This document shows positions 1 to 55,845 of a stretch of 64,000 bases of DNA, piece by piece. The DNA is from Octopus sinensis (lineage: Eukaryota): positions 28,582,001-28,646,000 of the forward strand of contig NC_043013.1 in assembly GCF_006345805.1 (NCBI RefSeq), given 5' to 3'. A program made the translations under genes and the position numbers. Positions within the stretch are counted from its first letter, which is position 1. Each line of letters opens with the position of its first letter. The notes below the pieces were generated by a model. That model ran no database searches. It saw only the letters and a list, made by a program, of their open reading frames with translations, and was not told the origin of the DNA.

Positions 1-810
1 AATTCCATTGATGTTCATCTATTTTGATTTGATTTGATTTGATTTTTGATTTTCACTTGCCTCAACAGGTCTTCACAGGTCTTCACAAGTGTCACAGGAA
101 GGAAGGAAGGTATGCACAGGGGACTGACTACGTCCCAAGTAGGGGCCACGGGTTATGGCCTGACTAGTCTTGCCGGGTCTTCGGTTGGTGTTTTTATGTG
201 CCACCGACACAGGTGCCAGATGAGGCTGGCGAACGGCCACGATCGGATGGTGTTTGTTATGTGCCCACGTCACAGAGGCCAGTCGATGCGGTACTGGCTA
301 CGGCCACGTTCGGATGGTTTTCTTGTGTGCCAACGGTACTGGTACCACAAAGATACAAATTCCATTGATGTTCATCTATTTTGATTTGGTTTGATTTGAT
401 TTGATTTGATTTTCACTTGCCTCAACAGGTCTTGATTTGATTTGATTTGATTTTCACTTGCCTCAACAGGTCTACACAAGTGTCACACACTTGCCTCAAC
501 AGGTCTTCACAAGTGTCATAAGTAGGTGTCACACACTTGCCTCAACAGGTCTTCACAAGTGTCATAAGTAGGAAGGTATGCACAGGTGGACTGACTACGT
601 CGCCGGGTCTTCGGATGGTGTTTTTATGTGCCACCGACACAGGTGCCAGATGAGGCTGGCGAATGGCCACGATCAGATGGTGTTTGTTGTGCCCACAGCA
701 CGGAGGCCAGTCGATGCGGTACTGGCTACGGCCACGTTCGGATGGTTTTCTTGTGTGCCACCGGTACTGGAACCACAAAGATACAAATTCCATTGATGTT
801 CATCTATTTT
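1..810. repeat. Tandem array (periods 357 and 428 bp) of a GC-richer repeat built from ~55-65 bp sub-repeats; expanded internal region of SINE family C
   Basis: aattccattgatgttcatctatttt recurs at 1, 358 and 786. The sub-repeat ggatggtgtttttatgtgccacc...ggccacg recurs within each unit and also in 16980-17307 and 30832-30950. Confidence 0.85.
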
Positions 811-811
811 C

Positions 812-848
<37 letters not shown>

Positions 849-996
849 TTGAAAAATATCTTAGGAATGAGAACCCAAGTTCGAAATTTCCCCCAAAATC
901 TGATGAAGGTTGATGGGTATATCAGCCGAAACGTTGTGTTAACAATAAACAAGATGGGGACAAATATCCATCAAATGTAAATAATGTAAATAATGT
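812..996 (+). mobile_element. Hammerhead-bearing short element, family HH-A, copy 1: (AAT)n followed by the body
   Basis: attgaaaaata(t/c)cttaggaatgagaaccca...tatccatcaaat aligns with 3802-3935; preceded by (TAA)n at 812-846. Confidence 0.8.
895..940 (+). ncRNA. Minimal type I hammerhead ribozyme (HH-A)
   Basis: CTGATGA (900-906), a, stem II ggttgat/atcagcc, GAAAC (928-932), GTT triplet, then gtgtt. Stem III is the self-complementary AACGTT with no loop. Stem I is weakened here (aaaat) but is gacac/gtgtt in copy 2. Confidence 0.75.
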
Positions 997-1560
997 CCAG
1001 GATTCCAGTTATTCAGAATCAATGTACTATATACAAATATATGAGAGTTAGACATGTTTTACTAAAACCTCCAAATTTTTGATGATGTTAGAAATCAACC
1101 GAAGCATATCCATGGTCCACTAATTAGGAATATAATCATAGCAGAGTAAATTAGGATTGAATGATTTGAATTCTAACCTCAATCATAATGTTGGAAGAAT
1201 TACTTCACAGCATTTGTTCTGGTTCTTTGCATTCCGAGTTCAAATACTATTGAGGTTAATTTTGCCTTTTATACTTTTGTGATTGATAAAATAAAGGACT
1301 GGTCGTGTACTCAGATCAATGTAACTCACTAACCCCAAATCCCCATGTAGTCACTGAACCTGTTAGAAGCAGCAGGCATGTCTTCTTAAAACATACACTG
1401 CTGTCTTTAAAGAAATAAGGCTTCATTTAACTAGTAGTCTTGAAAATAAGATGTGATGGTCATTTTAGGTCTGCCAGATCAGGGTTAACATAGAAGCAAC
1501 AACAACAGCAACAACTATAGCAAAAACTACACTAGTGAATCAATGAACAAGCCTTTACAT

Positions 1561-2170
1561 CAGGGGTGGGGAAACCTTTTAGTGTGGCAGGCAAAAATTT
1601 CCAAAGAAAAAGGTCCACAGGTGGGTCACAAGTTCTAACTCTTATATCTGTGTAAATCTTGTATACACCTATATATAATTTGATATACATTAATACAGAT
1701 AAGTTTAACTCATTAAATTAATGTGTAACATCTTCATTAACACCACCATTGAATTTAGGACATTTATATTACTTATGCGGTATTCTATATTTTTCAGCTA
1801 CAGTGTAGCTGGGTCTCAAGGGGGTGGTACAAACATAACAATATGTCTTTTATAGTGATAACAAAATTTCCATTCAAATGGCAATTACTAGATGATTTCT
1901 GTTCGAGTCTAACTGTTTTAAGTCAAAGTGGAAACACGACCTGTATCACAAATAGGCATATGGATATTACTCTTTTACTTGTTTCAGTCATTTGACTGCG
2001 GCCATGCTGGAGCACCGCCTTTAGTCGAGCAAATCGACCCCGGGACTTATTCTTTGTAAGCCCAGTACTTATTCTATCGTTCTCTTTTGCCGAACCGCTA
2101 AGTGACGGGGACGTAAACACACCAGCATCGGTTGTCAAGCAATGCTAGGGGGACAAACACAGACACACAA

Positions 2171-2207
<37 letters not shown>

Positions 2208-2522
2208 CAGATATACGACAGGCTTCTTTCAGTTTCCACCTACCAAATCCACTCACAAGGCATTAGTCAGCCCGGGGCTATAGCAGAAGACACTTGCCTA
2301 AGATGCCACGCAGTGGGACTGAACCCGGAACCATGTGGTTGGTTAGCAAGCTACTTACCACACAGCCACTCCTGCGCCTACTTACCACACAGCCACTCTG
2401 TATAAATTTTGTAATTGAAAAAATTACTATATTTCGTACATACAAGTATATCAGCCTGTGGGCTCAATAAAATGGGCTCGTGGGCACAATTATGCCCATG
2501 GGCAGGGTTTTCCCCATGATTG
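1561..2522. mobile_element. Probable hAT-type MITE interrupted by a SINE
   Basis: Left end caggggtggggaaacc and an imperfect inverted right end gggttttccccatgattg; SINE inserted at 1967-2398. Confidence 0.45.
1967..2398 (-). mobile_element. tRNA-derived SINE family A (internal (TA)n/(TG)n tract), full length, with ~20 bp duplication of its 5' end
   Basis: Minus strand has A box gtggctgtgtggt, B box gggttcagtccc and 3' tail gactgaaacaagtaaaagagt; more than 15 similar copies in the window. Confidence 0.92.
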
Positions 2523-3074
2523 CTCAAACTGCTTAATGTAAAGTAAAATAAAAAGACTTCCTCAAATCTTCCATTTTCATACCAATCCACTCAAGAACAC
2601 CTCTATTTTTGTCATGTAAAAATACACACATCTTTAAGTGTTCCTTTTGAAATCTTTTTCTTCAGTTCCACTTCAAACATCAAATTAATAACGAATATGT
2701 TATTTATTTTACCAAATTCTTCATTTTTTTCAAAAATTAATTGAAGGGCACTGTCAGTGTGTTTCATAAGAAAATTGGTTATGAAAGGGTTAGAGAAATG
2801 AAAATACATATTAGACGTGTAGGCTTGAGTGTGTAGATAAGAAATTTAATTTGAAATTGCATGGTTTTGAGTTCAGTCCTACTTCCTAGCACTTTGAATA
2901 AATATCTTCTGCTACAGCCCCAGGCTAACCATATGAGTGAATTTGGTAAATGGGAAGTGTCAGGAAGAAGCCTATCTTATACGTGAAGGTGTTATGTCTA
3001 CTTGTGACTACAGGGGCCTCTAAAGCAATTAGAGAAAGCATGGTGCATATTATCTGAACCATATTTGCTCACAG

Positions 3075-3225
3075 CCTAGTACTTTTTCTATTAGTTTCTT
3101 TTTGCTGAACCACTAAGTTACAGGGACGTAAATACACCAACATTGGTTGTCAAGCGACTGTGACAAGATAAGGACGCACAAATACTTGCATGTATGCATG
3201 TATACATACATACATACATACATAC

Positions 3226-3265
<40 letters not shown>

Positions 3266-3451
3266 TATATATATAATATATATATGTATGTATATGTATG
3301 ATGGGCTTCTTTCTGTTTCTGTCTGCCAAATCCACTCACAAAGCTTTGGTCAGCCTGAGGCTATAGTAGTAGACACTTGCCCAAGTTGCCACACTGAACC
3401 CAGAACCACGTGGTTGGGAAGCAAGCTTCTTACCACACTGCCACTCCTGCG
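3075..3451 (-). mobile_element. SINE family A, partial
   Basis: Homologous to 1967-2378. Confidence 0.85.
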
Positions 3452-3461
3452 TCCTTGGTAT

Positions 3462-3612
3462 ATTCCTAAGGTATTTTTCAATGTTATTATTATGATTCTT
3501 TTTCTTCTTCTTATTATTATTATTCAGGTCACTGCCTGGAATTGAACTCGGAATCTTGGGATTAGTAGCCCTCGATCTTAACCACTACACCATATGCCCG
3601 TGGGCATATGGA

Positions 3613-3704
<92 letters not shown>

Positions 3705-3975
3705 TAATAATAATAATATAATAATAATAATAATAATAATAATCATCATCATCATCATCATCATCATTATCATCATCGTTTAACGTCCGTTTTCCATAGG
3801 TATTGAAAAATACCTTAGGAATGAGAACCCAGGTTCAGAATTTCCCCTAAGACACCTGAAGAAGGCTGGAGTGTATATCAGCCAAAATGTTGTGTTAACA
3901 ACAAACAAGATGAGGACAAGTATCCATCAAATTTAATAATGTACATAATTCCTCATCTCTTAAATATAGAACTGT
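3462..3975. mobile_element. Family HH-A copy 2: divergent (head-to-head) pair, tRNA-like head + (AAT)n + hammerhead tail
   Basis: 3462-3599 on minus reads ggcatatggtgtagtggttaag...gagttcaattccaggcagtgacctg(aat)n aacattgaaaaataccttaggaat. The plus copy reads gacctg(aat)n...attgaaaaataccttaggaat...hammerhead. Junction palindrome ccatatgccc-gt-gggcatatgg at 3590-3611. Confidence 0.8.
3851..3896 (+). ncRNA. Decayed hammerhead (HH-A copy 2)
   Basis: gacac-CTGAAGA-a-ggctgg...tcagcc-aaaat-gtt-gtgtt. GAAAC is mutated to AAAAT, consistent with CpG decay; stem I is intact. Confidence 0.65.
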
Positions 3976-4319
3976 AATACATAGGTATGATTAAAAGCAA
4001 AGGATAATCCTTCTCAATCTACTCCTTCCCTGACCATCCCTCTACCATTCCACTCCATCAACTGGAAGCTAAGGTCAGGGAGGTCGCGAGTAAATCCTTA
4101 TAATGTCTCACTTAGGAGCAGAAACTAATTCCCCCAGAAACATCCAATCAAACACCAGGTAAATGTGGAGATAGATGTTGGATCTCATACACTCTCTCTC
4201 TCTCTCTCTCTCTCTGTATATGTAATATGTATAATATATATAATATATATCACATATACATTTCCTGATATCTCTAAGTCATCTTGCAAAGGTAATTTCC
4301 TTTTTGCAAGCTGGCAAGG

Positions 4320-4708
4320 GGGATGGTAACAGTGGCATTGATACTGGTGGTGGCAGTGGCGATGCAGGTGATGATAGTGTGGTGGAGGTGCTGGCGATGG
4401 TGGAGGTGGTGGTGGTGGTGGTGGAAATAATAGTTGTGGTGGCAGAAGTAGTATTGATGTTAGTGAGAGAGGTGGTGGTATTGGTGATATTAGTGATATT
4501 GGTTATGCTGGTGGTAGTCATGTTGTGGGTGGTGATGATGGTGGTAGTGGTGTTGTTGGTGGGGGTGTTGGCGGTGGTAGTGGTAATACTTGTAGTGGTG
4601 GTAATGGTGGCAGTGGTAGTGTTACTGTTAGTGATGTTGGAAATGGTGGTGGTGGTTGTGGTGGTGATGGTGGCGGTGATGTTGGTGGTGGTGGTGGTGG
4701 TGGTGGTC
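4320..4708. repeat. Degenerate (GGT/GAT)n trinucleotide tract
   Basis: Visible low-complexity repeat; source of the poly-V/G/P ORFs. Confidence 0.9.
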
Positions 4709-5657
4709 TAGAATCTTTCATTGGGTAAGATGAGGACTGAGGGTTGCTGACAGGGCTGAGGGTATAGGTTGGAGGACAGCATATTCATTCAAATATCGAT
4801 TTGCTTCCCCTTCTTAAAAATCCCTTACTCTTGCTTAACCTCCACCATCCACCCACACCGCTCCCACCACACTTTGCCCTACTCCACCCGTCTATCCCCT
4901 CAAGATAATGATTAAATTAAGAATGTTTATTTCCATTTTTTTCTCTTGGTAAAAACAAAAAAAAAACCCCCCAAAAAACCAAAATAAAACAAAGAAAGAG
5001 AGAAGCAAGTAAAACTAAACAGCTGTCATTTTAAGTATTTTTCTTTTAGTCTTCAACAGCTTGCTGCATTAGTTTGTGTAAACCATAATAATAATAATAA
5101 TAATAACAAATAATAATAATAATAATAATCAATAAGTAAATGAAAAATAAATGAAAACTAAATAAAAATCAAAATAACTCTCAAAAACCTAAGTGTACAT
5201 GATTGATATCCAAGGGTAATCAAAATACATTGCCAAGGGCCAATAAAACTGAATTTATCACCTTTATGAAATGGAAGCATGTTGAGATAAGGAAACTGTA
5301 CCTATGACCTCCCAACAAATTTCAATTATTGAATGTTGCACTAAAATATTATGTTTTATTCTTGCAAAAAGCAGCCCCACCCCACCCCACTTTGGAAAAG
5401 TAAAAAAAAAAAAAAAACCCCCCAAAAACACAGGCAAAACAAAGCTATTCAGTTGTATTGTTAAAATATTTTACTGAAAAGGGACAAAGTAACACACACA
5501 TGCACACACGCACACACACACACACACAAATATATATATATGTATGTGTGTGTGTGTGTATATATATATGTATGTATATATATACATATATATATAATAC
5601 ACATTAAATATATATATGTATATGTATAAATATGTATGTATATATATACACATATGT

Positions 5658-5703
<46 letters not shown>

Positions 5704-5948
5704 CATACACACACACAAACATGCATATGTGTATATTAGTGGTGGTGTGTAGGTTAGTGGTAAGGATGTTGCACTCATATCACAATATAAAGGTTGTAGT
5801 TCTTCAAGAAGGTGATGAATTGAGTTGTTGAGCCAAATGCTTTATTTTACATCGCTCCATTCCACTCAGCAGGCAAACATGAAATCTTGCGATGCTCTGG
5901 CTTCCCATCCAGGGGAAAAATATATCCACCACGAACCTTTGATCCTTT

Positions 5949-5988
<40 letters not shown>

Positions 5989-6195
5989 TTAATGGTTTGC
6001 AGCCGTTTACTCAATGTGAGGAAATTGAACATCGACTTTGTATACCTTTATCTACCTCTGAAGAGATTCAGCTTTCAAATAATTTTTAATTTAATTAATT
6101 AATTTTCTGAGAGCCCGGGATGCTTGTAAGGGATGTTTGTAAATTTATTAATTAATAAAGAATAATTTATTAATTACCTTTGTATTCTCTCATCT

Positions 6196-6249
<54 letters not shown>

Positions 6250-6455
6250 ATATATATGTTAGGTATAGGTGTGGTTATGTGTTAAGAAGTTTGCTTCCCA
6301 ACTACACAGTTTCAAAAATATACACCAGCACCGTATATACTTATATGTGTGTATGTGTGTGTATATAAATTCATATATTCATACACACCCATATACATGT
6401 ATATCTATTTATTTCCATTCCTCTATCACTCTGCTTCTGTCTTCCCCCTCTCTCT

Positions 6456-6500
<45 letters not shown>

Positions 6501-6659
6501 GAGGGCATTATACATACATGCCAGACGGCATTATACATACATGCCAGACGGCATTATACATACATGCCAAACGCTAAGAGGGACAATCAGTCATTTCTAC
6601 CAAAAATATTACTAATCCCACCGAATGCAATTTTTCAAAGTAAGACATTTAAAAATATA

Positions 6660-6705
6660 GACCTGTATCACAGTGATTTCATACTTACGTAATCATCAGC
6701 AGGCC
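6660..6705 (-). ncRNA. Type I hammerhead ribozyme (HH-B unit 1)
   Basis: Minus strand: ggcctg-CTGATGA-t tac gtaa gta t-GAAA-tcac t gtga-TA-caggtc. 6-bp stem I, GTAA tetraloop on stem II, near-palindromic stem III, AUA cleavage triplet. Confidence 0.88.
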
Positions 6706-7138
6706 TGAATGTATTATAAATAAACAACGACCCTGCCCCACTTAAGCCGATCAGCTAACTGATCAACATCAACGAAGCACATGGTTGAGTTTACATATAT
6801 TACATCCGGGTAAATGGCAAACTTTTACGAATTGCATTTCGGAGAGGAAAAGTTTTTTCGGAATAAAAATTTAGCAATTAAGGACAACTACTTAATAGGA
6901 AAACTTAACAAGAAATTGTCAGGTAGATAGCGTAAAAAAACCTCATAAGAGAAAAAATTTCGAAAATAATTATTTCTTATTGAACATATTAATTTATATA
7001 TAGAGGGCATTATACATACATGCCAGACGGCATTATACATACATGCCAAACGCTAAGAGGGACAATCAGTCATTTCTACCAAAAATATTACTAATCCCAC
7101 CGAATGCAATTTTTCAAAGTAAGACATTTAAAAATATA

Positions 7139-7184
7139 GACCTGTATCACAGTGATTTCATACTTACGTAATCATCAGCAGGCC
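7139..7184 (-). ncRNA. Type I hammerhead ribozyme (HH-B unit 2)
   Basis: Identical to 6660-6705. Confidence 0.88.
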
Positions 7185-7334
7185 TGAATGTATTATAAAT
7201 AAACAACGACCCTGCCCCGCTTAAGCCGATCAGCTAACTGATCAACATCAACGAAGCACATGGTTGAGTTTACATATATTACATCCGGGTAAATGGCAAA
7301 CTTTTACGAATTGCATTTCGGGAGAGGAAAAGTA

Positions 7335-7489
7335 ATGATTATATTCCTAATTAGTGGACCATGGATATGCTTCGGTTGATTTCTAACATCATCAAAAATT
7401 TGGAGGTTTTAGTAAAACATGTCTAACTCTCATATATTTGTATATAGTACATTGATTCTGAATAACTGGAATCCTGGACATTATTTACA
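7335..7489 (-). repeat. Exact inverted 155-bp copy of 985-1139 inserted inside the HH-B array
   Basis: Base-by-base reverse-complement identity with 985-1139. Confidence 0.95.
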
Positions 7490-7817
7490 AGAAATTGTCA
7501 GGTAGATAGCGTAAAAACCTCATAAGAGAAAAAATTTCGAAAATAATTATTTCTTATTGAACATATTAATTTATATATAGAGGGCATTATACATAGTAAT
7601 ATTTTTGGTAGAAATGACTGATTGTCCCTCTTAGCGTTTGGCATGTATGTATAATGCCGTCTGGCATGTATGTATAATGCCCTCTCTATATATAAATTAA
7701 TATGTTCAATAAGAAATAATTATTTTCGAAATTTTTTCTCTTATGAGGTTTTTACGTTATCTACCTGACAATTTCTTGTTAAGTTTTCCTTATTAAGTAG
7801 TTGTCCTTAATTGCTAA

Positions 7818-7865
<48 letters not shown>

Positions 7866-27811: not shown

Positions 27812-28004
27812 TTATTTTATAGAAGAAGCTTCTACAGGACTAGAACTGTTTCATTCAAATGAAATCATCAGAGCTTCCTGATGATTTCATTTGAATGAAA
27901 CAGTTCTAGTCCTGTAGAAGCTCCTTCTATAAAATAAATTAATTTACTCTGCTATGTATTGAGTACCTTATTTACTGTGTTTAACCCCGACTCAACCTGG
28001 GACC

Positions 28005-29186: not shown

Positions 29187-29671
29187 ATTTTATAATTATA
29201 TACATAATTATAACAAGAGCTTGGCTAGTGCCTCACCACGCACTGAAAAATAGATGCCAAAATACACTATAACCACCATAAATTCTCTGAGAAAAATACA
29301 CTACATAATAGGCTAGCAAAAGAAAGAAAATGAATTAAAACTTTGGTTAACCATGTACATGATCATGTTTCGGGCTTAAAGTAATAAAAACATTGCCTAT
29401 TGCCTTCATCAGCATCGGTATTCCGGGCATAAATATACAAGCGACCATGGACATGTAAGCGAGCTGTGTCATCTAGACTCGCAGAGATATGCTGCGAAGT
29501 AGAATTCCTATCCCTCTCTTAAGCGTCTATTTTTCAGTGTGTGATGAAGCACTAGCCAAGCCCTCGTTATAATTATGTACTTAATTATAAAATATTTATA
29601 AAATTTACCTATGAGGTATTATTTCTGTGCTGACCACCTGGTAAAAATCATTAATGGTTTTTACCCTTTAT

Positions 29672-50742: not shown

Positions 50743-52430
50743 TTAAATAATATAGTTTCGATACCCAGCAATAATGGGTTCAATTCCTGTTGTGCTATCT
50801 TTATATTTCATTTTGTGATATAGCAATATTACTTAAGCACTTCTCTGTGGAGCATAGGCTATTGATGTGTTTTCTTCACTGAGCTGCTGTTTCTTCTGCT
50901 TCTCTTCAGCTGGATCCTTGCTTTTCCATGCAACTTCCTTTTCAGTTTTGCTGCATCATTTGAGATGTTTAGTAACAGAGTGTCATAAGTGTCACCCTGG
51001 CCATTTTTGAGATGAGTATATCATTTTCTCTGTTTCAATGCCTAGAATCTGAAAGAGTTGGGAGGAAGAAATGGTGAGGCTTCCAATAAGGTTGAAAATC
51101 CAGCTGAAAAACCTTTTACCCTGACGCTATTGACACGACACTTGCTCACCCAAACTTGGACCAGAAAGTTTAGTAACACACCATTGTAAGCACGCATGCT
51201 CAAAGAATAAGTTTGGTGTGATCCCTGTATTGTTTTATGAGGTGTTATTATTTCTTAATATTCCTTGTCACCATTATAACGATAGTGGGTTATTATCTTG
51301 CTATCTTATCTTACCTCTTAAAGATACTTACCTTGGTATATTAAAACACTAGCAATACTTTTGTGGGTATCTTTGTATATTTTATCTAGGTATTATGGCT
51401 AAAATATGCCATGCGATACACCATTTCATAGTACTGGTATATTCTACAAAATGAGAAAGACACAGTCATTGTTTCTTCTTTCAAATGCATACGTAAATAA
51501 ATAATTTTACATAGGTGGAATAATTAGAGGAGGTCTTCACAGTCATTTTAAGACCAAAACCAGCATCCTAACTTCATTCATTGCCAGGATACTGCATTCT
51601 GAAAGTTTCAAAACTTTGACTGCATTTTTCTTGGTTTTTAAGTTGTGGCACTTATGATGGTCTGTTACTAAACCCCTCATTTCATGTTTCCCTGAGGGAA
51701 GGCCTCCCTCTTCCAGATCTCTTTGGTTTTGAATTGTCATCAATGCTTTCATAACTTTGCTTTTTGCAAAATGCAAATCCATTTTTGTCTCTGGGAAGAG
51801 GTGGCCCATATTGATCTGGCCTCTGTCCTTTGACCTGACCCACATGGGAGGCCTTACCAGCTGGGTGATTGGTGTTAGGAAGAGCATCCAATCGTAAAAT
51901 CCCTGCCAAAACAGTCACAGAAGTCTGGTGCAGGCTCCTGCCTGGCCGGTTGCTGTCAAACCACCCAACCCATGCCAACATGGAAGTCAGATGTTAAATG
52001 ACGATGATGATGATGATGATGATAATGATGTACAGATGGTGTAGTTATATTGAAATACATGAATAAATAAATAACAAGTATCTTGTTGCAATGAGGTAGT
52101 GTGGAATCCATGGAGATGGAGGTGAATTCTTTTGTCTGACAGAATCATTTGATTGGTTAGAATTCTGTAATATTACATAATATTGAGCTAACGAGGCAGC
52201 ATCTTCACTTGTGAAGATGCTTTCTGCCCTTAGGTAAATATTTGATTAATTTTTGCACCTGTAAAATGTAACATCATGTTTGAATATGAAAAAGACAAGG
52301 CGTGGGTGTGTGGTTAGAAGCGTGTTTCCTAACCACATGGTTTGGGGTTCAGTCCCACCGCATGGCACCTTGTGCAAGGGATCAAAACCTTGAGTTTATT
52401 TGGTAGAGAGAAACTCAAGAAAGTCTGCCA

Positions 52431-52496
52431 TATATGTATGTCTGTATGTATGCATGTATGTATGTATGTATGTATGTATGTATGTATGTATGTATG

Positions 52497-52532
<36 letters not shown>

Positions 52533-52542
52533 TGTATGTATG

Positions 52543-52576
<34 letters not shown>

Positions 52577-52770
52577 TGTATGTATGTATGTATGTATGTA
52601 TGTATGTATGTATGTATGTATGTGTGTATGTATGTATGTATGTATGTATGTATGTATGTATGTATGTGTGTATGTATGTATGTATGTATGTGTGTATGTA
52701 TGTATGTATGTATATATGTATGTGTGTATGTATGTATGTATGTATGTATGTATGTGTGTATGTATGTATG

Positions 52771-52804
<34 letters not shown>

Positions 52805-52838
52805 TGTATGTATGTATGTGTGTATGTATGTATGTATG

Positions 52839-52872
<34 letters not shown>

Positions 52873-52962
52873 TGTATGTGTGTATGTATGTATGTATGTA
52901 TATATGTGTGTATGTATGTATGTATGTATGTATATATGTATGTGTGTATGTATGTATGTATG

Positions 52963-52996
<34 letters not shown>

Positions 52997-53171
52997 TGTA
53001 TGTATGTATGTATGTGTGTATGTATGTATGTATGTATGTATGTGTGTATGTATGTATGTATGTATGTGTGTATGTATGTATGTATGTATGTATATATGTA
53101 TGGTGTATGTATGTATTATGTATGTATGTATATATGTATGTGTGTATGTATGTATGTATGTATGTATGTAG

Positions 53172-53203
<32 letters not shown>

Positions 53204-53254
53204 TGTATGTATGTATGTATGTGTATGTATGTATGATGTATGTATGTATGTGTG

Positions 53255-53286
<32 letters not shown>

Positions 53287-53697
53287 TATATGTGTGTATG
53301 TATATGTATGTGTGTATGTATGTTGTATGTATGTATGTATATATGTATGTGTGTATGTATGTATGTATGTATGTATGTATGTATGTGTGTATGTATGTAT
53401 GTATGTGTGTATGTATGTATGTATGTATGTATGTATATATGTATGTGTGTATGTATGTATGTATGTATGTAGTATGTATGTATGTATGTGTGTATGTATG
53501 TATGTATGTAATGTGTGTATGTATGATGTATGTATGTATATATGTATGTGGTATGTATGTATGTATGTATGTATGTATGGTGTGTATGTATGTATGTATG
53601 TATGTATTATGTATGTGTGTATGTATGTATGTATGTATGTATGTATGTGTGTATGTATGTATGTATGTTATATGTATGTATGTGTTATGTATGTATG

Positions 53698-53731
<34 letters not shown>

Positions 53732-54159
53732 TGTATGTGTGTATGTATGTATGTATGTATGCATGTATGTATGTATGTGTGTATGTATGTATGTATATAT
53801 ATATGTATGTATGTATGTATATATGTATGTATGTATGTGTGTATGTATGTATGTATGTGTGTATGTGTGTATGTGTGTATGTGTGTATGTATGTATGTAT
53901 GTATGTATATATGTGTGTATGTATGTGTATGTATGTATGTATGTATGTATGTATGTATGTATGTGTGTATGTCTGTATGTATGTATGTATGTATGTATGT
54001 ATATATGTGTGTATGTATGTATGTATGTATGTATGTGTGTATGTATGTATGTATGTATGTATGTATGTATGTATGTGTGTATGTATGTATGTATGTATGT
54101 ATGTATGCATGTGTGTATGTATGTATGTATGTATGTATGTATGTATGTATGTATGTATG

Positions 54160-54193
<34 letters not shown>

Positions 54194-54339
54194 TGTATGT
54201 ATGTATGTATGTGTGTATGTATGTATGTATGTATGTATGTGTGTATGTATGTATGTATGTATGTATATATGTATGTGTGTATGTATGTATGTATGTATGT
54301 ATGTATGTATGTATGTGTGTATGTATGTATGTATGTATG

Positions 54340-54375
<36 letters not shown>

Positions 54376-54480
54376 TGTATGTATGTATGTATGTGTGTAT
54401 GTATGTATGTATGTATGTATATATGTATGTATGTATGTATGTATATATGTATATATGTATGTATGTATATGTTTATGCAT
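52431..54480. repeat. ~2-kb (TATG)n microsatellite following a SINE A head (52299-52430)
   Basis: Visible; source of the long YVCM ORFs. Confidence 0.95.
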
Positions 54481-54540
54481 GTGCATGTAAAAAAAAAGCT
54501 AAGTCAGATTTCTAATAATTAATTTATCTTGTATTTTGCG

Positions 54541-55195
54541 ATTTTATTCTTTTATTTGTTTCAGCTATTTGACTGCAGCCATGCTGGAGCACAACTTTCA
54601 GTCAAACAAATCAACCCCCAGACTTATTCTTTGTAAGCCTAGTACTTATTCTATCAGTCTTTTTTGCCAAACCACTAAGTTTCAAGGATGTAAACACACC
54701 AACATTGGTTGTGAAGCGATGATGGGGGGAACAAACACAGGCACACAAATACATGCATGCATACATACATACATACATACATACATACATACATACATAC
54801 ATACATACACACATACATATACATACATACATACATACACACATACATACATACATACACACATATATACATACATACATACATACATACATACATACAT
54901 ACACACATACATACATACATACATACACACATACATATATACATACATACATACATACATACACACATACATACATACATACATACATACATACATACAC
55001 ACATACATATATACATACATACATACATACACACATACATATATACATACATACATACATACATACACACATACATACATACATACATACATACACACAT
55101 ACATACATACATACATACATACATACATACATACATACATACACACATACATATATACATACATACATACATACACACATACATACATACATACA

Positions 55196-55229
<34 letters not shown>

Positions 55230-55473
55230 CATACATACATACATACATACACACATACTACATACATACATACATACATACATACATACATACACACATA
55301 TATACATACATACATACATACATACATACATACATACATACATACATACACACATACATACATATATACATACATACATACATACATACACACATACATA
55401 CATACATACATACATACACACATACATACATACATACATACATACATACATACATACATACATACATAACACA

Positions 55474-55507
<34 letters not shown>

Positions 55508-55621
55508 CATACATACATACATACATACACACATACATACATACATACATACATACATACATACACACATACATACATACATACATACATACATACATAC
55601 ACACATACATACATACATACA

Positions 55622-55652
<31 letters not shown>

Positions 55653-55845
55653 TACATACATACATACATACATACATACATACATACATACATACATACA
55701 TACATGACGGGCTTCTTTCAGTTTCCGTCTACCAAATCCACTCATAAGGCTTTGGTAGAAGACACTTGCCCAAGGTACCATGCAGTGGGACTGAACTAGG
55801 AACCATGTTGTTGGTAAGCAAGCTTCTTACCACAGAGCTATGCCA
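54541..55845 (-). mobile_element. SINE family A with internal tract expanded to ~950 bp of (CATA)n
   Basis: SINE 3' part at 54541-54750, (CATA)n at 54755-55705, head at 55706-55845. Confidence 0.92.

Follow-up and report, generated by a model that had tools for sequence, protein, structure and literature searches.

Non-LTR retrozymes are tandem repeats of type I hammerhead units, and the available portions of two accounts argue that they derive from Penelope pLTRs (PMC7229834; 10.64898/2026.07.22.740005). The accessible text of one paper describes Penelope-like elements as inserting into (TA)n, with a truncated copy in inverted orientation and a tail restricted to one end (PMC8557442). In vitro, both strands are nicked and extended, with two internal RT start sites (PMC11167929, text open to view). 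In those portions, neither of the last two papers claims to settle the way in which an insertion of the Penelope type is finished in vivo (PMC8557442; PMC11167929). For L1, the excerpts available describe 22 templated insertions of <250 bp, most with a source no more than 15 bp from the site (10.1101/2024.08.27.596794, Zumalave et al.), foldback synthesis of 52-220 bp (PMC10191854, Nam et al.), and templated genomic insertions together with an inferred resection of ~6.3 kb at an L1 break (PMC11702581).

The insertion considered here lies in a 64,000-nt stretch of Octopus sinensis DNA (the window) and belongs to a repeat that we call HH-B. The HH-B unit is 479 bp long with a GC content of 0.33, carries a type I hammerhead on the minus strand and occurs in ~1,000 units (991 exact genome matches to one HH-B 24-mer). 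Judged from the 98-99% identity of the best full-length copies (38 of 1073 candidates scored), the family is young, as is the window's insertion. In both of its units CTGATGA/GAAA/ATA is present, stem I is 7 bp long and stem III is a palindrome closed by a 1-nt loop, and the hammerhead core is intact in 186 of the 217 HH-B units examined. With stem III palindromic, the predicted hammerhead would need a dimer. Free folding gave no hammerhead fold (z = -0.23 for HH-B, where the monomeric fold is absent, and -0.99 for the neighbouring hammerhead element HH-A), and Rfam at the gathering score returned 0 matches within the window. There is no stop-free frame of at least 75 aa between 6693 and 7825. 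Going by these sequence features HH-B would be a non-LTR retrozyme, with a core in each unit and repeats that are tandem, low in GC, non-coding and dispersed.

The array runs from one (TA)n tract through arm A, a foreign patch, 106 bp in arm-A orientation, a 2-bp TA microhomology where the arms meet, and inverted arm B to a second (TA)n tract:

6459..6492, no strand: left (TA)n target tract
6493..7333, minus strand: HH-B arm A, a full 479-bp unit and a partial second, from end-site A; RNA sense is minus
6666..6699, minus strand: type I hammerhead core of unit 1
7145..7178, minus strand: predicted type I hammerhead core of unit 2 (CUGAUGA, GAAA, AUA cleavage triplet)
7334..7334, plus strand: extra A at the left junction, from the comparison of units 1 and 2
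7335..7489, minus strand: the patch, a 155-bp exact inverted copy of 985-1139, with ACA microhomology at 7487-7489
7490..7595, minus strand: 106 bp of HH-B, resumed nearly in register in arm-A orientation
7594..7825, plus strand: HH-B arm B, inverted, from end-site B (equivalent to 6863)
7826..7857, no strand: right (TA)n target tract

The first-pass annotation described the patch as the perfect reverse complement of 985-1139, set in place of ~55 bp of unit 2. This is indeed what the assembly holds. All 155 of 155 bases agree, with 0 bases of extension on either side. Unit 2 tracks unit 1 to 7333 (=6853) and resumes at 7487-7490 (=6908-6911), and the 54 bp equivalent to 6854-6907 are swapped for the patch. 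The missing 54 bp span end-site B (6863-equivalent), and the inverted repeat formed by arms A and B has its base at this site too. The single extra A on the left and the ACA on the right, both reported earlier, are seen again against unit 1, the ACA being common to donor and element. From the patch to the arm A/arm B junction is 106 bp; inverted arm B, which closes the array, went unmentioned in the first-pass annotation. The source of the patch is made up as follows:

848..1006, plus strand: HH-A, an old solo fragment of the Penelope pLTR type with a minimal hammerhead
985..1139, plus strand: the donor, comprising the last 12-22 nt of HH-A and single-copy downstream flank, from the genome match

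The donor was said to begin within the last ~12 bp of HH-A, and so it does, although the right end of HH-A is uncertain (996-1006) and the overlap is accordingly given as 12-22 nt. The geometry also agrees with the earlier statement that the insert, on the HH-B RNA strand (minus), reads in the sense of HH-A.

Whether the donor flank is otherwise single-copy was put forward earlier as a check. In a genome search that leaves out very common words, 997-1139 has exactly two matches in the 2.72-Gb assembly, namely the donor and the insert. This rules out a high-copy repeat as the source of 997-1139. The captured sequence is likewise absent from further copies of the element, and the patch has not spread. 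The donor lies ~6 kb from the patch and 5.4 kb upstream of the HH-B insertion, and simple arithmetic (13 kb / 2.72 Gb) puts the odds of a random donor within ~6.5 kb near 5e-6. It has what is expected of the donor of a locally templated insertion, being unique, near the site and still present. Its perfect identity to the patch is weak evidence of youth, because polishing may homogenise two copies. The patch is thus confirmed as an exact, inverted copy of a local donor in the assembly, and it probably represents a real, one-off, locally templated event in a retrozyme insertion.

What if the patch, or the whole insertion, is an assembly chimera and not in the animal? We consider this quite improbable, and it is the public sequencing runs that give it some substance. 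The best four (none of the listed runs matching 7280-7620 is an RNA run) hold 0.69-0.75 of the sampled words of that interval, close to the 0.73 calculated if all three junctions were absent. These runs, which represent at most three samples and may exclude the assembled animal, contain no junction-spanning contig over 7200-7660. The patch is covered in 4/4 of them by one 267-nt contig per run that continues past both ends at flat depth, and such an unbroken contig is what the donor locus alone gives. The homopolymer differences in unit 1, which resemble long-read noise, also point toward assembly error. However, contigs drop rare or low-depth links, and the same outcome is expected of a private young insertion. 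The junction of arms A and B, a type ordinary for the family, seems to be missing from the run contigs too. Finally, a double chimera with an in-register return and microhomology would be an unlikely error for an assembler to make.

If the patch is real, one candidate template is RNA. The RT might have left HH-B RNA for a nascent plus-strand transcript nearby (HH-A read-through, or a host pre-mRNA that has gone unrecognised), copied 155 nt of it and gone back. The orientation fits such a template, and the insert does lie in the RNA sense of the element template. An extra A at the point of entry is typical of RT template jumping, and the one at 7334 counts in its favour. A return nearly in register fits an RT still bound to its own RNA. 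There is also one L1 case, in the excerpt available, of a nearby pre-mRNA that was co-inserted (PMC10191854).

Nevertheless, we regard a jump to local RNA as unlikely. HH-A retains CTGATGA at 900 and GAAA at 928. It is old and solo. Its best relatives share 89-93% identity with it (40 of 4464 candidates scored), and its stem I, judged by eye, is damaged, with loss of the ACAC found in most relatives. Neither junction lies at an RNA end, be it a ribozyme cut or a poly(A) site: AATAAA and ATTAAA are both absent from the 60 nt that precede 1139, and copying would have stopped at 985, ~50 nt before it reached the putative HH-A cut (~935). A low-power Pfam search of 140 ORFs (135 frames of at least 48 aa, filtered and unmasked, and five long ones) from the window and 80 kb of neighbouring sequence revealed no host exon or gene direction that would fix a plus-strand gene; the matches that passed their cut-offs were one Mos1 HTH and one low-complexity PT repeat. 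An HH-A read-through RNA has no positive support. What survives of the earlier proposal of an RT switch onto such an RNA is the orientation, which is a 50% coincidence, and the age and damage of HH-A and the lack of junctions at RNA ends speak against the rest.

Some neighbouring repeats deserve mention in their own right. HH-A relatives (window 848-1006 and 3802-3949; L243-L253) end at ...AATAATGT or ~30 nt further. This two-end pattern is the classic Penelope tail, and there are 4464 candidates in the genome. Another hammerhead-like motif, CTGATGA...GAAAC, occurs at 29361-29412 (minus), and a short inverted repeat at 27843-27906 has CTGATGA...GAAAC on both strands. A long microsatellite-like tract at 52430-55705 contains an inverted block (54731-55705 versus 52430-54489).

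How do HH-B insertions usually end? A survey covered 160 other HH-B loci of 8-10 kb each, consisting of 37 full-length-copy loci, 23 contig-1 loci found with the 24-mer and 100 arm-at-B loci. The last group was drawn as 80 of 159 and 20 of 28 matches, which makes the sample partial and biased to B-start arms. The typical insertion has two head-to-head arms in (TA)n, joined through microhomology or a short filler. Its mobilisation would be Penelope-like, going by a microsatellite target, tandem and inverted arms and two defined 3' ends. There are 113 close head-to-head junctions in the 160 loci (L064 is duplicated and counted twice). An arm that starts at site A (~6986-7001/6523) is paired with one that starts at site B (6863) in 106 of them, and in 37 of 39 within the 60 loci unselected on B. 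The start sites are ~125-140 nt apart, and this A+B pairing is a strict strand asymmetry of priming, with a tail that exceeds the 30-40 bp described. Among the 113 two-armed insertions, A+A was never seen and B+B once. Twin priming on one RNA is ruled out as the rule for the family, arm A ending near site B in 2 of 107 cases.

The joins themselves are informative. By a k-mer method, 51 of the 113 junctions have 1-11 nt of microhomology, 14 are blunt, 19 have fillers of 1-5 nt and 29 have apparent fillers of at least 6 nt, the last figure being an overcount in which many are subfamily variants outside the k-mer set. Ten of the 29 longer fillers match sequence within 40 nt better than shuffles do, most clearly at L100, L110, L150, L164 and L222. 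Microhomology joins and locally matching fillers mean, therefore, that error-prone, templated end joining is routine at HH-B insertions.

Three loci appear to be hybrids in which an HH-B arm is combined with an arm of another family ending in (TA)n (L076:5025-5066, L147:4235-4650 and L212:3925-4088). Hybrids of this kind suggest a separate RNA molecule for each of the two nicks. Close head-to-head pairs are also frequent in another small repeat family (3392 exact 24-mer matches; e.g., L223-L225), which probably arises by the same two-arm mechanism.

The survey also bears on whether other HH-B insertions hold captured local segments, and whether these show a sense bias, as the first-pass annotation had asked. 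No out-and-back capture of unique DNA was found at the other loci (0/160). However, among 47 inner ends from loci without a second HH-B arm, two of which run into N gaps, two adjoin long near-identical local copies of 164-232 bp with donors 1-2 kb away. At L077:3720-3951 the copy is 232 bp and inverted, with its donor 1.2 kb away, and is 99% identical versus at most 94% elsewhere (40 of 378 scored). We take the donor to be a fragment of a local old retroelement ORF, presumably Penelope-like; Pfam gave no match for its frame. At L212 the copy is 164 bp and direct, with its donor 2 kb away, and is 98% identical versus at most 96% elsewhere (40 of 1905 scored). Both have weaknesses. The identity margin at L212 is thin, and the copy may be an arm of another repeat family, as it appears at L076 and L147. 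The L077 flank is noisy. An HH-B cDNA could have extended into either copy only on a template antisense to the donor element, and therefore the two copies do not fit a switch of that cDNA onto sense RNA, which is a further point against an RNA template. They fit DNA templates, or else a free target end primed on local sense RNA. With the free target end as primer instead of HH-B cDNA, both donors are in element sense and the RNA alternative regains some ground.

Several other candidates for capture were rejected. The 42-bp filler at L076 is the 3392-copy repeat. The L087 flank has five distant copies at 96-98% and none locally, and nothing near-identical to the L079, L114 or L063 flank lies within ~15 kb (best 92%). 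The 33-bp direct copy at L176 looks like a target duplication, and the matches at L090, L092 and L190 are short and 92-95% identical. The L069:5476-6882 gap is a 1.4-kb nested repeat with a (CAT)n end, lying in TATAT of an HH-B unit; members of that nested-repeat family also fill window 1-810. The gap common to L104 and L183 is not a local capture either, but a shared cargo.

This cargo concerns the wider claim made earlier, that these elements can shuffle host sequence. For the patch, with its two copies, the claim is not borne out. For a separate 1.7-kb insert it holds up better. L104:4572-6272 and L183:1475-3174 carry this insert at the same unit position, 97% identical and with unrelated flanks, and its junction is present at five HH-B loci. 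Within the cargo, 473 aa can be read without a stop, and this frame, which includes a CCHC knuckle-like motif, is presumably LINE ORF1-like; Pfam found no match for it. Apparently, then, HH-B arrays can spread foreign cargo.

The earlier alternative to a template switch, an insertion templated by local DNA during integration or repair, is the best fit, and within it copying during integration is preferred to later repair. Our leading explanation, held tentatively and a little short of an even chance, is that a growing cDNA end copied the patch from local DNA while the insertion site was an open break. In this scenario a Penelope-type enzyme would nick both (TA)n strands and reverse-transcribe HH-B RNA from each, giving arms A and B. 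Arm A cDNA would stall at 7333, gain an untemplated A and snap back onto its own upstream strand, which resection or unwinding had laid bare. From there 155 nt could be copied, either by the RT or by an end-joining polymerase of the host. Through ACA the end would re-anneal to the HH-B template, having skipped 54 nt, extend for 106 nt and finally join arm B through TA. In favour of local DNA, the donor is exact, local and single-copy, and the local copies at the arm ends of L077 and L212 count toward it as well. The orientation of the insert fits the plus DNA strand and a plus-strand RNA equally. The plus DNA strand would be the primer strand of arm A, exposed by 5' resection of the left flank. 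DNA and RNA templates are not separable from one sequence. An out-and-back excursion of arm A is mildly favoured over a fold-back of arm B, because the resumed 106 bp (7490-7595) lack both private differences of arm B, a weak argument given homopolymer noise in the assembly.

Against capture during integration count the lack of a junction-spanning contig in the public runs, the 0/160 out-and-back captures at other loci, and the L1 donors, which in the excerpts available mostly lie within 15 bp rather than 5 kb away. It also sits awkwardly with this reading that the 54-bp loss straddles site B, where arm-A ends are rare (2/107). A later break fits this too. Perhaps the array went in intact and was broken on both strands afterwards, either close to where the inverted repeat of arms A and B has its base or at site B, which is AT-rich; repair would then have removed 54 bp and put in 155 bp copied from nearby DNA. 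Resumption nearly in register is expected of a deletion-insertion in an existing array, and the lost 54 bp lie across the 6863-equivalent, the expected starting point of the inverted-repeat stem. Penelope-type endonucleases also cut AT-rich DNA, including their own pLTR, according to the available text (PMC11167929). However, a family as young as this one leaves little time for an independent later break. Moreover, the patch is only 106 bp from the arm junction, and the other candidate local copies are exactly at arm ends. A later break is therefore judged improbable, and copying during integration remains our preferred explanation.

What would that mean for HH-B? The local patch, the microhomology joins and the templated fillers at many loci suggest that HH-B inserts at an open break, probably a resected one, that error-prone synthesis then completes, as in L1. 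A bolder version, which we think doubtful, is that a Penelope-driven retrozyme insertion holds a kilobase-scale open break whose free ends sample nearby templates, including the nascent RNAs of neighbours, and can return, with arrays re-mobilising what they pick up. The 1.7-kb cargo at five loci suggests such re-mobilisation by tandem arrays. If this were true, retrozymes would be a vehicle for cis-capture and transduction, for which no report was found in this class. The patch itself is non-coding and without evident function, and it has not spread. The value lies mostly in the family-wide view of how HH-B insertions finish, and the ~1,000 young units are a natural data set for testing the open-break idea.

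It is useful to return to the known systems. Like the non-LTR retrozymes of animals in the accounts available, HH-B is tandem, low in GC (33%) and non-coding with a type I hammerhead per unit, and its 479-bp unit falls inside the reported range of 51-972 bp. Captured local DNA and a two-arm head-to-head structure set it apart from the retrozymes in the accessible portions of those accounts (PMC7229834; 10.64898/2026.07.22.740005). With Penelope-like elements, as far as the available texts describe them, HH-B shares (TA)n or AT-rich targets, partial tandems, an inverted truncated copy and two start sites that leave one end alone with a tail. However, the HH-B start sites are ~125-140 nt apart versus 30-40 in Penelope-like elements, and HH-B has no ORF. 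A literature search, with most subscription papers outside its reach, turned up no paper in which a Penelope-like element or a retrozyme had captured local DNA.

Synthesis-dependent microhomology-mediated or polymerase-theta end joining, in the part of that literature available, likewise leaves short microhomologies, inverted copies made by snap-back, and small templated fillers at junctions. Fillers of the polymerase-theta type usually amount to tens of bases taken from the flank right beside the junction. In contrast, the patch is a long-range copy, 155 bp from 5 kb away.

The closest parallel is with L1, where the excerpts available also describe non-element segments of <250 bp copied from near the target with inversion and microhomology. 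These L1 precedents, within the limits of the excerpts, mean that both routes in the first-pass annotation (an RT switch and local templating) therefore have precedent. Unlike L1, the host element is a non-coding hammerhead retrozyme, known here from its sequence. The donor is 5.4 kb from the site, whereas those of L1, in the same excerpts, are mostly within 15 bp, and in a further departure from them the HH-B patch is flanked by element on both sides. Templated insertion itself is known from L1, and the novelty is in the element class, the donor distance and the return to the element.
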